A stretch of DNA of 64,000 bases from Candidatus Brockarchaeota archaeon (GTDB lineage: Archaea; Thermoproteota; EX4484-205; JAAOZO01). Shown one piece after another: positions 19,318 to 24,659 of the stretch (its first letter is position 1; each line of letters begins with the position of its first letter). The notes under the pieces are model-generated. The model was not told the DNA's origin. It did not search any database and saw only the letters and a list, made by a program, of their open reading frames with translations. The stretch lies in NCBI GenBank assembly GCA_017601145.1, contig JAFNIV010000006.1:479-64478 (forward strand), read 5' to 3'. The position numbers and the translations under genes were made by a program.

Positions 19318-19839
19318 TCAGGAAGAAGCATTAAGATCTTCTTCTTTTTTTAATTGATGAACTTTTGAGTTTAGCTTTTTTGCTCTTTGATACTCCAAGC
19401 TATGCCTTTCAAGTTCTTCTAAGACTTCTTTGTTTGAGTTCGCAAACTTGTTTAGTATGCTTAAGTATCTTGCCAGCCGTACAACATTAGGATCTATTTT
19501 TACTAAGTCTTTCCCATCAACCAAGACATAGTGTTCTCGATTTATTTTTTCACCAAGTATATACTCAGCTTCGTTTATTGCAGCATGAAGCAGAAAACAA
19601 TGTGGACTTCCATCTATTGTTACTACAGTTATACTCTTTGGAGAAGAGCTACGGATCATTGAAGCTATTTTTCCATAGCTTGTTACAGTCTCATTCTCTG
19701 GGCAATAAGTTAAAACCGTTTTTCCTTTCTTTAAATCTTTCCACAATTTAGGATTTATGTATTTAAGACATTCACTCGCAATAAGAAGATGATTTTCCTT
19801 TAAACGCGGAGTTTTTACCCAAGTTTCCATAAGTTTCAT
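19318..19839 (-). CDS. Hypothetical protein translationally coupled to thiC
   Basis: 173 aa. Its start codon overlaps the thiC stop (TAATG, sharing 1 nt at 19839). No motif recognised. Three Cys residues. Confidence 0.55.
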   Translation of the reverse strand: MKLMETWVKTPRLKENHLLIASECLKYINPKLWKDLKKGKTVLTYCPENETVTSYGKIASMIRSSSPKSITVVTIDGSPHCFLLHAAINEAEYILGEKINREHYVLVDGKDLVKIDPNVVRLARYLSILNKFANSNKEVLEELERHSLEYQRAKKLNSKVHQLKKEEDLNASS

Positions 19840-21128
19840 TAGCTACCACCTTCTAGATACTTTTCAAGGATTAAGTATACGCATAATGAACCACACATTG
19901 TACAAGATGTTACAGAAGAGGCTCCAAATTGCTCATGTATTGCTCTTGCATGCTTATTATCATAGGAAAGATTAAACATTTCTTGCCAGTTTAACTTTGC
20001 CCTCGCTCTAGACATTTTTATGTCCTTCCCTTTAGCCTTTTCACCCAACTTAACGATATCCCCAGCATGTGCTGCAATTTTTGCTGCTATGAGTCCTTCT
20101 TTTACTTGTTCTACGTTTGGTAAAGAAAGGTGTTCTGCTGGGGTTAAGTAACATATTAAGTCCGCACCTTCAGCACTAGCTATAGCCGCTCCAATTGCAG
20201 AAGCAATATGATCATAACCAGCTGCTACATCTGTAACTAAAGGACCTAAAACATAGTATGGAGCACCGCCACTTAGAATTTTTTCAAGCTTTATGTCAGG
20301 TGCAATTTTATCTAATGGCATGTGGCCAGGACCTTCTATCATAACTTGTATTCCTTTTTGCCATGCCCTCTTGGTTAATTTTGAATTGTTTACGAGTTCA
20401 GCTACCTGAAGCTCATCATGAGCATCAGCTATACTTCCGGGTCTCAACGCATCTCCTAAGCTTAAAGTAGCATCATACTTCTCAGCAAGTTCAAGCAAGT
20501 AATCAAAGTTAGAGTAAAGAGGATTCTCTTTGATGTTGTGTAACATCCACGCAGCTAGTATTGCGCCTCCTCTACTTACAACACCTGTAAGCCTTGAACT
20601 ATTTTTTAGTTTACTTACAAGTTCTTTCGTTATACCAGTATGAACAGTAATGAAATCAACGCCATCCTTTAAGTGTTTTTCTATTGTATCAAAGATTTCA
20701 TCCTCAGTCATATAAACTACAGCACCTTTTTTCTTAGCTGTTTCAAGACTGGCTTGGTAGATTGGAACAGTTCCAAAAGGGACATTTGTGATCTTCAAAA
20801 ACTTTCTTCTAATTTCATCAAGATCACCTCCAGTACTTAGGTCCATTAAAGTATCAGCTCCGTACTCAATTGCGACCTTGACTTTTTCTAGCTCTAAATC
20901 TAAGTTAACATAAGTTGTAGAAGTACCAATGTTAACGTTAACTTTTGTAGTAAGACCTTCTCCTATGCCAACTGGCTTTAGCTCTCGATCAATGTTACGA
21001 GGAATAACCACTGTACCACGAGCTATTCTTTGCCTTAAAATTTCAACTTCTATACCTTCTTCTTTGGCTACTGCTTCCATTTCCTTTGTAAAAGAGCCTC
21101 TTTGAGCCACTTTCATTACAGTAGACAT
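19839..21128 (-). CDS. thiC: Phosphomethylpyrimidine synthase ThiC
   Basis: 429 aa. Conserved ThiC blocks ([22 protein letters not shown]) and the C-terminal CTMCGSLC Fe-S motif. Confidence 0.95.
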
Positions 21129-21146
21129 TTTATCTCAACGCCTGTA

Positions 21147-21170
21147 GCAACATGTTTATAAACATGTTGC
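21147..21170. promoter_or_regulatory. Perfect 24-bp palindrome GCAACATGTTTA|TAAACATGTTGC with a central TTTATAAA TATA-like core. Candidate shared divergent promoter and ThiR operator.
   Basis: Read directly from the sequence. The centre (21158/21159) is 30.5 nt from both the thiC start (21128) and the thiDN start (21189). Confidence 0.6.
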
Positions 21171-21188
21171 ATTGACCTTGAGTTTGAA

Positions 21189-22550
21189 ATGGGAACTCCA
21201 ATTGCCCTAACAATAGCTGGAAGTGACTCTAGCGGAGGAGCAGGAATACAAGCAGACTTAAAGACTTTTGCAGCATTGGGAGTTTATGGAGCTTCTGTTA
21301 TAGTGGCAATTACTGCACAAAACACACAACGTGTGAAAAGAGTTTATGAAGTTTCTTCAGAAGCTATAGAGGAACAAATTAAGGCAATTCTTGAAGACTT
21401 TGAAGTTGGCGCAATAAAAACTGGAATGCTCCATAACACAGAAATAGTTTCAACTGTTGCTAGAATATTAAAAGACTTTAAACATCCACTGGTTGTGGAC
21501 CCAGTAATTTTAGCAAAAGATGGAACTCAGCTTTTAAAAGAAGAAGCCATAAAAACGACAATTAAAGAACTCTTTCCAATTGCAACAATCGTTACTCCAA
21601 ACAAGCATGAGGCTGAGAAGCTGACTGAAATTTCAATAAAAAACATCGAGGACATGAAACTAGCTGCAAAAAAGATTGTAGAAAGCTATGGCGCTAAAGC
21701 TGTAGTTGTAAAAGGTGGGCATTTAAATGGTAATGAAGCTGTTGACGTAATTTACTATGAAGGAAAATATAAAGAGCTAAAAACAAGTAAGATAATTACA
21801 AAGAATACTCATGGTACCGGATGCATTTTCTCAGCAGCTATAGCTGCTGAACTAGCAAAGGGAGAAGATATTCAAAAAGCTGTTGAAGTTGCTAAACTTT
21901 TTGTAACTCAAGCTATTGCATATAGCTTAGCTATTGGCAAAGGCCAAGGTCCAACGAACCCTACTTCTTGGCTCCAGCTTCCAGCTGAAAAATACAACGT
22001 TCTAGAAAACATGAAAAAAGCAATTGAAATTTTGGAGGAAAACAGAGAAGTTGCTAATTTAGTGCCAGAAGTTCAAATGAACTTAGTAATGAGTTTACCA
22101 AAACCGTATGCGAAAGACATAGAACATATAGCAGGAATTCCAGGAAGAATAGTTAAGGTTGGAAACAAAGTTAAGGCTTCTTCACAACCAAGCTTTGGAG
22201 CTTCTTGGCATATGGCTAGAGCATTGCTTAAAGTTATGGAATTTGATGAAAACTTCAGAGCAGCTATGAACATCAAGTATAGCAAGAGTATAGAAGACGT
22301 TATTAGATCTGTTGGTTTTTCAGTAATTTCATATGAACGAAGTGAAGAACCTCTAGAACTAAGGAAAAAAGAAGGAGAAAGTATACCATGGTTAGTGGAA
22401 AGAGCAATAAAGAAATCAGGGAAAGTACCAGATGCAGTTTGTGATCTAGGTGATTGGGGTAAGGAACCATTAATCTACGTATTCGGGAAGGATGCTGTTG
22501 AAGTTGCAAATAAAGTTGTTAGGATAGCGAGGGAACAAGGAAGTGGTTGA
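21189..22550 (+). CDS. thiD: Bifunctional HMP/HMP-P kinase (ThiD) fused to archaeal thiamine-phosphate synthase (ThiN domain)
   Basis: The N-terminus LTIAGSDSSGGAGIQADLKTF is ThiD-like. The C-terminal ~180 aa (PEVQMNLVMSL..GIPGRIVKVGNKV..PSFGASWHMARALL) is a ThiN domain, paralogous to the C-terminus of the 23730 gene. Confidence 0.9.
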   Translation: MGTPIALTIAGSDSSGGAGIQADLKTFAALGVYGASVIVAITAQNTQRVKRVYEVSSEAIEEQIKAILEDFEVGAIKTGMLHNTEIVSTVARILKDFKHPLVVDPVILAKDGTQLLKEEAIKTTIKELFPIATIVTPNKHEAEKLTEISIKNIEDMKLAAKKIVESYGAKAVVVKGGHLNGNEAVDVIYYEGKYKELKTSKIITKNTHGTGCIFSAAIAAELAKGEDIQKAVEVAKLFVTQAIAYSLAIGKGQGPTNPTSWLQLPAEKYNVLENMKKAIEILEENREVANLVPEVQMNLVMSLPKPYAKDIEHIAGIPGRIVKVGNKVKASSQPSFGASWHMARALLKVMEFDENFRAAMNIKYSKSIEDVIRSVGFSVISYERSEEPLELRKKEGESIPWLVERAIKKSGKVPDAVCDLGDWGKEPLIYVFGKDAVEVANKVVRIAREQGSG

Positions 22551-23625
22551 AATGAGTGAACTACCAAGACTTGGAAAACTTCCCCCAGATGTATTTGAAG
22601 AAGTGATATACCCAAACCTAGGGTTGGTTGGTTCAGAAGTATTAGTTAAACCAAATCATGGAGTTGACGTAGGCGTAGTTAGTCTAGGAGATATTGTTTT
22701 GATTGTAAAGAGTGATCCTGTTTTTGTTGTCCCTGAGTATGGATGGGAAAGAAGCGCATGGTTTGCTGTGCATATACTAGCAAGCGATGTTTCGACTTCT
22801 GGAGTTGCACCAAAATACTTGGCAATAGACCTAAATCTTCCACAAAGCATGAAGAAAGAAGAGTTTGTAAAACTTTGGAAGGGCATTCATAATGAATGTA
22901 GGAAGCTTGGAGTTGCTGTAGTTACAGGTCATACTGGAAAGTATGAAGGTATCGATTATCCAATGATAGGAGGCGCTACAATGTTTACAGTAGCACAAAA
23001 GGATGGCTACGTAACTACAGAGATGGCAAAACCTGGAGACAAAGTAATAATGACAAAAGGTCCTGCGATAGAAGCTGCAGGAATACTTTCTACAATGTTC
23101 CCAAAATATGTTGAAGAAAAGTATGGAAAAGAGTTTGCTTTAAGAGCAAGAGAACTATTTTACTTACAGAGTGTAGTAGAAGATGCATTAATTTTGGCGA
23201 AGATTGGTTTAAGGAGCGGCGTAACTTCAATGCACGATGCGACCGAGTATGGAGTATGGGGTGCTTTGCATGATGTTGCTAGAGCTAGCAAGGTTGGAAT
23301 AAAAGTGATGAAGGAGAAGCTTTTCATGAAGGAAGAGGTTAAGAAAGTAATTAACGCATTTTCAGAACTTACTGGGATTGAAGCCGACCCATTTGCAGCT
23401 ATAAGTGAAGGCACGTTAATAGCAACTGTAAAACCTCAAAGGACTAGCGAAGCTATTTTAATGCTTAAAGAAAAGGGAATTGATGCTGAAGTGATAGGCG
23501 AGGTTACAGATGAATGTGAAGAAGTTGTACTTATAGAAGAAGGAAAAGAAAGAAATATAGAAAGACCTAAGCAGGATCCTTTCTGGCCAATCTTCTTTAA
23601 GACTATTGAACTACTCAATACTTAA
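22543..23625 (+). CDS. PurM-superfamily (AIR synthase-related; HypE/ThiL-like) protein
   Basis: LPRLGKLPPDVFEEVIYPNLG start and a GVDVGVVSLGD..VKSDP block typical of AIR-synthase-related proteins. The likely start is ATG 22552, 1 nt after the thiDN stop. Confidence 0.7.
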   Translation: MVEMSELPRLGKLPPDVFEEVIYPNLGLVGSEVLVKPNHGVDVGVVSLGDIVLIVKSDPVFVVPEYGWERSAWFAVHILASDVSTSGVAPKYLAIDLNLPQSMKKEEFVKLWKGIHNECRKLGVAVVTGHTGKYEGIDYPMIGGATMFTVAQKDGYVTTEMAKPGDKVIMTKGPAIEAAGILSTMFPKYVEEKYGKEFALRARELFYLQSVVEDALILAKIGLRSGVTSMHDATEYGVWGALHDVARASKVGIKVMKEKLFMKEEVKKVINAFSELTGIEADPFAAISEGTLIATVKPQRTSEAILMLKEKGIDAEVIGEVTDECEEVVLIEEGKERNIERPKQDPFWPIFFKTIELLNT

Positions 23626-23729
23626 TGATAGGAAATCAGGTAGCTGAAAAAGATTTATAAGCAAGAACAAGTTTGAGGCTGTAAGTTAAATTATGTTTAT
23701 AAAACAATAACTAGAAACTTTAACTAATC

Positions 23730-24659
23730 ATGAGACCACCATGTGAACTTGTTAATAAGTTCTACTTACCTCAATTAAGAGCTAGAATAAGTAGAGAACT
23801 CGTAGAAAAATATGGATGGAATATGAGACAGGTTGCTAAAACATTAAAAGTTTCTTCAACTGCAGTGTCAAGATACAAGAGGATAACAAAAGAAAGATCC
23901 AGAATTTCAAGTAACTTCTTAGATGAATTTGCAAAAAACTTAGCTAACAAGATAGCAAAAAATGAAGTTAACGATGAAGAATTCATAAGACAAGTATGTT
24001 CTAATTGTTTAGTTTTAAGGCTTGAGGGAGACGTATGTAAAATCCATAGAAAAGAAATCTTAGAGTTGAAAAATTGCAGAGTTTGCTCTATGTTGTTCGT
24101 AGAAATGGAAAACATTCAAGCTGAAAGGCTTGAAGTAATAGAAGAGTTAAACTCTGCTTTAAAGCTTCTATCGAGTTACCATAACTTTGACTTGCTAATA
24201 CCAGAAGTAAGAACAAACATAGTAATGTGTGTAAAAAGTCCAAAGGGATTACAAGATGTAGCAGCGTTTCCAGGAAGAATAACATCAATCAATGGAAGGG
24301 CTGCTGCACTATCACAACCAGAATTTCAGGCGTCTAAGCATATTTCCAAGATACTTTTAGCAATGAACAAGAAAAACCAAAATGTTAAAGCAAGTATGTG
24401 TATTAAATTTAATGATGAAATAGAAAAAACAATGAAAGAAGCTAAACTTAAGTATATAATAATGGATAGAGCAAAGTATAACGACATAGCGAAATTCATT
24501 GAAGACCTTTCAGATAACTTTGATGCTGTTGTTGATCCAGGAGAGAAGAACGTAGAACCAGTAGCTTACATTTTTGGGAATGGAGCTATAAATGTAGTAA
24601 AGAAAGTCTTGGACTTAACTAAGTTTTTAGAGAAAGAAATTAAGAAAACTACAAGTTAA
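23730..24659 (+). CDS. thiR: ThiR-type regulator: N-terminal HTH domain fused to a C-terminal ThiN-like domain
   Basis: HTH segment (GWNMRQVAKTLKVSSTAVSRYKR). The C-terminus aligns by eye to the ThiN half of ThiDN (PEVRTNIVMCV..AFPGRITSINGRA..PEFQASKHISKILL). This architecture was described for archaeal ThiR. Confidence 0.75.
   Translation: MRPPCELVNKFYLPQLRARISRELVEKYGWNMRQVAKTLKVSSTAVSRYKRITKERSRISSNFLDEFAKNLANKIAKNEVNDEEFIRQVCSNCLVLRLEGDVCKIHRKEILELKNCRVCSMLFVEMENIQAERLEVIEELNSALKLLSSYHNFDLLIPEVRTNIVMCVKSPKGLQDVAAFPGRITSINGRAAALSQPEFQASKHISKILLAMNKKNQNVKASMCIKFNDEIEKTMKEAKLKYIIMDRAKYNDIAKFIEDLSDNFDAVVDPGEKNVEPVAYIFGNGAINVVKKVLDLTKFLEKEIKKTTS

Follow-up and report, generated by a model that had tools for sequence, protein, structure and literature searches.

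Genes of the thiamine locus

The window, a 64,000-nucleotide stretch of contig JAFNIV010000006.1 from a Candidatus Brockarchaeota archaeon, contains two divergent operons of thiamine genes separated by a 60-nt spacer. The leftward operon begins with thiC (19839..21128, minus strand), which encodes HMP-P synthase (Pfam ThiC_Rad_SAM, 1.9e-189). It is followed in the ORF list by a reading frame of 173 residues (orf173; 19318..19839, minus strand) of unassigned family, for which searches of Pfam and NCBIfam returned no match. Because its start overlaps the thiC stop, orf173 is probably co-transcribed with thiC and under the same control. In a second genome of the same genus (G001), an ORF of 160 residues lies directly after thiC and is close to orf173 in a comparison of size alone.

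The rightward operon begins with thiDN (21189..22550, plus strand), a fusion of HMP/HMP-P kinase and ThiN thiamine-phosphate synthase (Pfam Phos_pyr_kin, 9e-96, and ThiN, 5e-62; NCBIfam NF006346, 606 bits, above cut-off). An AIR-synthase-related, ThiL-like gene (22543..23625, plus strand; Pfam AIRS and AIRS_C) overlaps or abuts the thiDN stop. The NCBIfam models for thiL and hypE tie in score on this gene, both below cut-off; the pairing of thiDN with an AIRS gene is also found in the related loci L052, L102, and L113. After thiDN-thiL comes thiR (23730..24659, plus strand), whose 309-residue product has an N-terminal HTH module with a Cys cluster and a C-terminal ThiN-like sensor domain. It is encoded 2.5 kb downstream of the palindrome that is documented below. 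In relatives, thiR is instead divergent from thiDN, thiW, cytX, or a gene for an ECF component.

The genome from which the window comes (G000) has thiC, thiDN, and the ThiL-like gene, with no evident source of the thiazole moiety. Searches of this genome for Thi4, ThiG, ThiW, CytX, the ECF component, and the P-loop protein described next found none of them. The absent thiazole-branch genes may be assembly gaps, since the assembly is 86% complete. In relatives, a P-loop protein of 185-192 residues with weak DUF87/AAA matches is always encoded directly after thiW (L033 4243-4821, L052 345-902, L129 920-1480, and L070 4912-5460); from this position, it may be a kinase for an imported thiazole precursor.

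The ThiR-type protein

The preliminary description of this locus recognized the product of 23730..24659 as an HTH plus ThiN protein, and homology searches agree. Pfam model PF10120 (ThiN) matches residues 139-294 at 7e-43, and the protein aligns over its full length with HTH_3+ThiN proteins of Thermococcus. Matches to the HTH_3 and HTH_23 models in residues 16-52 are weak (E about 0.01), and homologues of the protein carry precomputed PF01381. The N-terminal module has a family-wide motif, MRPPCE..YLPQLRARI...IS.TA.SKYKR, that can be aligned to the Thermococcus HTH_3+ThiN proteins as MRxP..LPxLRARI...IS.TA.SKY. In an AlphaFold2 model with a pLDDT of 89.5, the HTH region is helical, with short helices at residues 32-39 and 43-54. 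The C-terminal domain matches PDB entry 2PHP at 9e-16, and a Foldseek comparison of the C-terminal half with 2PHP and 2PB9 gave target-normalised TM-scores of 0.78-0.82 at 25-34% sequence identity. For the N-terminal module, the fold search was uninformative, as its ranking was dominated by the ThiN half. By its sequence, the 309-residue protein is of the ThiR-type architecture, HTH plus ThiN. The counterpart gene in Pyrococcus furiosus, PF0601, is termed ThiR in PMC10746257.

Ten residues, P158, V160, N163, P181, G182, R183, F199, S202, G271, and E276, do not vary among 18 ThiR-type proteins; they fall in motifs common to ThiN enzymes. Between the HTH and ThiN domains lies a cluster of five Cys residues. 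Two of these, C103 and C119, are invariant across the same 18 proteins, including those of Thermococcus, and C90, C93, and C116 are lineage-specific. The cluster may be a metal site, judging from its sequence pattern. Stand-alone proteins of 110-150 residues match residues 1-125 of ThiR, that is, the HTH and the Cys-rich segment. Two are encoded in the same genome (C29:406-696 and C55:33111-33479), with many others in relatives, and from these matches they appear to be small archaeal regulators of one widespread family.

This genome has no TPP riboswitch: Rfam family RF00059 was not found in it, while controls in ten bacteria were matched. A scan of the window matched no Rfam family. ThiR here occurs in place of TPP riboswitch control.

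A palindrome centered between thiC and thiDN

The thiC start codon, on the minus strand, ends at 21128, and the thiDN ATG begins at 21189. Between them, at 21147..21170, GCAACATGTTTATAAACATGTTGC reads directly as a perfect 24-bp palindrome whose dyad, at 21158.5, is 30.5 nt from each start codon. This much of the preliminary description is borne out exactly. The palindrome is the longest perfect one in the window and the only perfect one of 24 bp in the 1.62-Mb assembly (34.7% G+C), which also has, elsewhere, one of 28 bp unrelated to the thi site. By our own estimates from base composition, chance should give the whole genome about 0.3 palindromes of at least 24 bp, and one given 60-nt spacer about 1e-5 of that length. 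The pattern ACATGT-N(3-9)-ACATGT occurs once in the genome, which has no further copy of the 20-mer with fewer than 4 mismatches; shuffled window sequence gave a mean of 0.01 matches. Conservation, rather than palindrome length, is the decisive evidence for the site.

That evidence narrows the element. The outer GCA/TGC bases that extend it to 24 bp are specific to this genome and are not kept in relatives, so the proposed ThiR operator, which has no strand, is the inner 18-20 bp of GCAACATGTTTATAAACATGTTGC. Its core, ACATGT-TTATAA-ACATGT (21150..21167), is conserved in relatives. The two ACATGT arms are spaced 12 bp center to center and, because each is itself a palindrome, they form both direct and inverted repeats. 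A symmetric TATA box, TTTATAAA, lies at the dyad (21155..21162) and starts at -34 from both start codons.

Two further symmetrical features were seen nearby. An outer 5-bp inverted repeat, CTCAA...TTGAG, at 21135-21139 and 21178-21182, is symmetric about the same dyad, so that TTGAG stands at -11 to -7 relative to each start codon. In G001, TGAG is found on both sides near this position, offset by 1 nt, and a genus of another family in the same order (g6) lacks the outer repeat. The repeat may be a chance occurrence, or else an initiator or some proximal feature of the promoter. Inside the thiD region, TCAGCAGCTATAGCTGCTGA at 21831-21850 is a perfect 20-bp palindrome. It probably lies on a conserved ThiD peptide of the SAAIAA type, a motif seen in ThiDN of L070; if so, it is a by-product of GCN/ATA codons, not a site.

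Promoter geometry

Upstream of 709 long ORFs of this genome, TATA-like hexamers are most frequent at -33 to -30 relative to the ATG, from which leaderless mRNAs can be taken to predominate. At -34, TTTATAAA falls on the upstream shoulder of this peak. Positions -45 to -33 from the ATG codons of the same ORFs are A-rich. Unlike this consensus, the flanks of the thi TATA box read AACATG on both sides, identical by symmetry, and the flanks of all 175 genomic TTTATAAA boxes have no preference for ACATG. The ACATGT arms are therefore specific to the thi site, not part of a general promoter consensus.

Bidirectional promoters with a shared TATA box, whose divergent start sites are 49-52 bp apart, have been described in Pyrococcus furiosus (PMC6640164) and Thermococcus kodakarensis (bioRxiv 10.1101/2020.01.31.928960). 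Here, 61 bp separate the start codons of thiC and thiDN, with TTTATAAA at the midpoint. With start sites placed by the Thermococcales rule, about 25 nt to either side of the dyad, both transcripts are predicted to have leaders of about 4-6 nt.

Conservation of the core in relatives

The preliminary description had proposed alignment of orthologous spacers, and this proved informative. In eight aligned spacers, AACATGTTTATAA..A.GT alone is invariant, and the flanks are scrambled. The thiC/thiDN spacer of G001 is likewise 60 nt long, and its core lies 30.5 nt from each start. In genus g6, where ThiR is 49% identical to that of the window, an identical AACATGTTTATAAACATGTT lies between divergent thiDN and thiR; in one member (G019), 31.5 nt separate it from the thiDN ATG and 26.5 nt from the GTG start of thiR. 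In a genome labeled 'Thermoprotei archaeon' (ThiR 51% identical), the core lies between thiDN-thiL-thiW and thiR. The core is identical in five genomes (G001, G015, G019, G020, and G011), in the loci L052/L053 and L054/L055, and in 14 metagenome contigs beside ThiR or ThiDN genes, and it is kept where ThiR identity to the query falls to 42% (the L054 lineage). When all 26 genomes of the order were searched with up to 2 mismatches allowed, sites were found in 8, all of them among the 10 genomes with thiDN; each of the 8 has a single site, which lies in its thi locus.

The identical core occurs in four gene contexts. It lies between thiC and thiDN in the present genome, G001, L063, and L099; between thiDN(-thiL)-thiW and a divergent thiR in G015, G019, G020, G011, L052, and L102; between a gene for an ECF-type transporter component and a divergent thiR in L054; and upstream of cytX-thiDN-thiW in L070, where a 26-bp perfect palindrome precedes the operon of a cytX-like permease gene, thiDN, and thiW. 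A metagenome scan with the exact 18-mer returned 60 stretches. The site adjoins ThiR or ThiDN homologues in 14 of these; the other 46 are mostly ORF-poor DNA, and the few flanking ORFs scanned in them showed no thiamine link.

Where the site sits at promoter distance, its center is in most cases an exact TATA box. Variants of this form occur at two ThiR loci that are slightly further removed. L137 has ACATGT-TTATCA-ACATGT, displaced from the TATA box, and L136 has ACATGT-TATAA-ACATGT, with a center 1 nt shorter. The arms are therefore the constant part and likely the recognition element, since both loci keep them while the center varies. L136 also encodes, at 1478-2917 on the minus strand, a 479-residue protein with AIRS, AIRS_C, and ThiN domains, an apparent ThiL-ThiN fusion; its gene is divergent from thiR, and the shorter operator variant lies between the two.

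Beyond these lineages, no ACATGT-type site was found at the distant ThiR loci checked, namely those of G032, G039, G046, G053, G060, P0026, P0019, Thermococcus celer, and two members of family f14 (G035 and G049), which may be Sulfolobaceae. The motif is accordingly lineage-specific, with other motifs at the distant loci. The distant ThiR locus of G060 (L009, about 1463-1483) has a different palindrome, AGTGATT-ATATA-AATCACT, over a TATA-like box about 25 nt upstream of thiR, and this sequence suggests that TATA-centered operators recur in the ThiR family.

The region upstream of thiR and the extent of the regulon

The preliminary description had also pointed to a related element upstream of thiR and, from this weaker site, suggested autoregulation. 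The element, ATGTTTATAAAACAAT, is present at 23693..23708 (plus strand), about 30 nt upstream of the thiR ATG, and consists of a TATA box, probably that of the thiR promoter, and an ATG flank that resembles a half-site. It has only ATGTTTATAAA in common with the operator. Comparison with G001, the single other species available (L060 and L099 are the same species and so add no comparison), shows that only ATTATGTTTAT, the left half and the TATA box, is kept; the right half differs. An ATG flank beside TTTATAAA occurs at the chance rate among the 175 genomic boxes. We therefore rejected the element as a second operator, with one half conserved and a match no better than chance. Autoregulation of thiR remains likely on other grounds, because thiR is on the same strand as thiL, begins 105 nt after it, and is separated from it by no oligo-T run. 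In sister lineages, the gene layout predicts that thiR is transcribed directly from the palindrome.

The enrichment of sites upstream of other thiamine genes that was to be looked for within the genome did not appear: scans with the 24-mer, the 20-mer, and arm-only patterns with 3-9 nt spacers found no extra operator. The best additional matches fall before sufC (4 mismatches), within an ScpB-like gene, and at other, unrelated loci; all were rejected as chance. It follows that the regulon here comprises the two divergent operons only and that, with one site in the genome, no within-genome regulon corroborates the operator. A separately located thiC in genus g6 has no site, which indicates that the regulon is small and variable.

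State of the site and state of thiR

Ten of the 26 genomes of the order have thiDN and enter a comparison of site with thiR; the other 16 have neither thiDN nor the site, which confounds occurrence of the site with occurrence of the thi locus. The lack of thiDN in these 16 genomes suggests, from gene content, that they belong to thiamine auxotrophs. Where thiR is intact (the present genome, G001, G015, and G019), the site is a perfect 20-mer. It is also perfect in G020, where thiR has one frameshift, and in G011, where the ThiN domain of thiR has been lost. The site has 1 mismatch in G014, where a 79-residue remnant of thiR is left, a 1-nt insertion in G025, with a 19-residue remnant, and 2 mismatches in G021, where thiR is deleted. 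G016, in which thiR is absent and thiC and thiDN form one operon, has no site. By our own count over these ten genomes, the association of intact thiR with a perfect site gives a one-sided Fisher p of about 0.07; at such small numbers, it is no more than suggestive. The trend fits decay of the operator sequence after loss of the regulator. Genus g6 alone includes intact, frameshifted, truncated, remnant, and deleted states of thiR.

Which factor reads the site

The reading that we favor, and consider quite likely from the comparisons of sequence above, is that one symmetric TATA box drives both divergent transcripts, each of them nearly leaderless, and that a ThiR operator peculiar to this lineage is superimposed on it. 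The preliminary description's candidate, a ThiR operator on a TATA box shared by thiC and thiDN, thus survives in substance: the core is conserved, is confined to thi loci in the order, tracks thiR, and has arms that are not generic. What changed is its length, 18-20 bp in place of 24 bp.

A true operator of the thiamine regulon could instead be read by a different protein, such as one of the stand-alone paralogues of the ThiR N-terminal module. Such small proteins are many, two of them in the genome itself, and G011 keeps a perfect site although its thiR copy lacks the ThiN domain. We consider this unlikely. The site adjoins thiR in most lineages, as is usual when a regulator has an operator of its own. 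The paralogues are also present in genomes that lack the site, and the site decays where thiR is a remnant or lost.

Quite unlikely, too, is that the element is a symmetric bidirectional core promoter (BRE-TATA-BRE) kept for its strength and served by no dedicated regulator. Promoters of this design are known (PMC6640164; bioRxiv 10.1101/2020.01.31.928960), the element is centered on a perfect TATA box whose distance from each gene suits a promoter, and the site is unchanged in the two genomes with damaged thiR, G020 and G011. The arms, however, do not resemble the A-rich upstream consensus and are not enriched beside other TATA boxes, and in genomes of the order the exact 18-mer occurs once per genome, at thi loci only. 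It is also kept with one adjacent gene only (L070) and off the TATA box (L137), and on loss of thiR it decays while the TATA half stays.

A chance palindrome or a structural element of DNA or RNA (cruciform or hairpin) that binds no transcription factor, for which one could cite the 0.3 palindromes of at least 24 bp that we estimate per genome and the existence of the unrelated 28-bp one, is effectively refuted by a core that stays exact across ThiR lineages down to 42% identity amid unconserved flanks; an RNA element is further disfavored by the empty Rfam scan of the window and because the palindrome, upstream of the expected start sites, would go untranscribed.

Proposed mechanism

For the ThiR operator on a shared TATA box, we infer that ThiR rather than another factor binds the site, that it represses from there, that thiamine phosphates are its effector, and where transcription starts. 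The 2017 study by Rodionov, Leyn, Li, and Rodionova reportedly gives thiamine phosphates as the effector of ThiR and describes ThiR as a repressor. The single symmetric TATA box would direct TBP, TFB, and RNA polymerase both ways, and the thiC-orf173 and thiDN-thiL(-thiR) transcripts would start about 25 nt to each side of the dyad. The ACATGT arms would occupy, in each direction, the TATA-adjacent positions where TFB reads the BRE. In plentiful supply, thiamine phosphates would be bound by the ThiN-like domain and a ThiR dimer would settle on the arms, blocking assembly of TBP and TFB and turning both operons off together. When thiamine phosphates fall, ThiR would leave and both operons would fire. 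Occlusion of the TATA box cannot be the mechanism for thiDN in L052 and L102, because the site there is about 70 nt from thiDN.

A stronger version would make operator and core promoter one object, with the ThiR dimer and TBP/TFB competing for the same 18-20 bp and the arms serving as the BRE-position sequence both ways, so that one ligand-sensing dimer gates two leaderless divergent mRNAs. We put this forward tentatively and regard it as rather doubtful. If true, L137 and L136 would show the evolutionary assembly and dismantling of the fused element. As a bolder addition, the Cys cluster, with its invariant C103 and C119, might give ThiR a second, metal or redox, input on the radical-SAM gene thiC.

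Significance

Predicted ThiR-type thiamine control is extended here to an uncultured archaeal lineage of the hot-spring type, with a sharply delimited and very strongly conserved predicted operator, ACATGT-TTATAA-ACATGT. The 60-bp spacer offers a clean test object for the competition of an archaeal repressor with TBP/TFB and for the possible use of one TATA box by two protein-coding genes. The 18-mer is a practical marker of the thiamine regulon in related metagenomes, where it flags thiW, cytX, the ECF component, and the conserved P-loop protein. Ordered from an intact thiR through its remnants to its loss, the genomes present, in small numbers, what appears to be operator decay after loss of the regulator. 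The current picture of archaeal vitamin regulation is unchanged.

Comparison with known systems

Most likely, this is an expected kind of site for a known regulator family in a lineage previously undescribed for it, with the consensus judged independently of published ThiR motif tables and of RegPrecise. The 2017 study by Rodionov and colleagues reportedly covered 67 cultivated genomes, and the uncultured lineage treated here is not known to be among them. NCBI labels the relatives 'Thaumarchaeota archaeon', 'Thermoprotei archaeon', or 'Thermoproteota archaeon', and none of the papers searched connects ThiR with Thaumarchaeota. Both PMC10746257 and PMC12029414 cite the 2017 ThiR study (J Bacteriol 199:e00743-16).

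As in ThiR of Crenarchaeota, Halobacteria, and Thermococci, the protein here has an N-terminal HTH and a C-terminal ThiN-like domain, and its gene lies in a thiamine locus. As in known ThiR systems, a palindromic site stands in promoters of genes for thiamine synthesis and transport (thiC, thiDN, thiW, cytX, and an ECF component in this genome and its relatives), and there is no TPP riboswitch. Unlike those systems, this one belongs to an uncultured lineage and has a single-operator regulon in its own genome.

The ThiR protein itself has a domain in common with ThiN enzymes. Its C-terminal half has the same fold as MJ0236 (PDB 2PHP) and as 2PB9, a ThiN domain deposited as a phosphomethylpyrimidine kinase C-terminal domain, and it keeps the ThiN motifs PEVxxN, PGRI, F-x-x-S, and G-x-E-P. 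In contrast to stand-alone ThiN and ThiD-ThiN proteins, its ThiN domain is fused to a DNA-binding module, not to ThiD. The enzyme itself is already provided by the neighboring ThiDN, whose ThiN domain shares 33% identity with that of ThiR.

The promoter resembles the shared-TATA promoters of Thermococcales, in which TTATAAA or TTTAAA lies midway between start sites; here TTTATAAA lies midway between start codons. In P. furiosus, the antisense products of shared-TATA promoters were read as non-functional RNAs (PMC6640164), whereas here both products would be mRNAs of one pathway. Unlike in the Thermococcales promoters, the TATA-adjacent positions here appear to be those of a conserved, predicted regulator motif, not a generic BRE.
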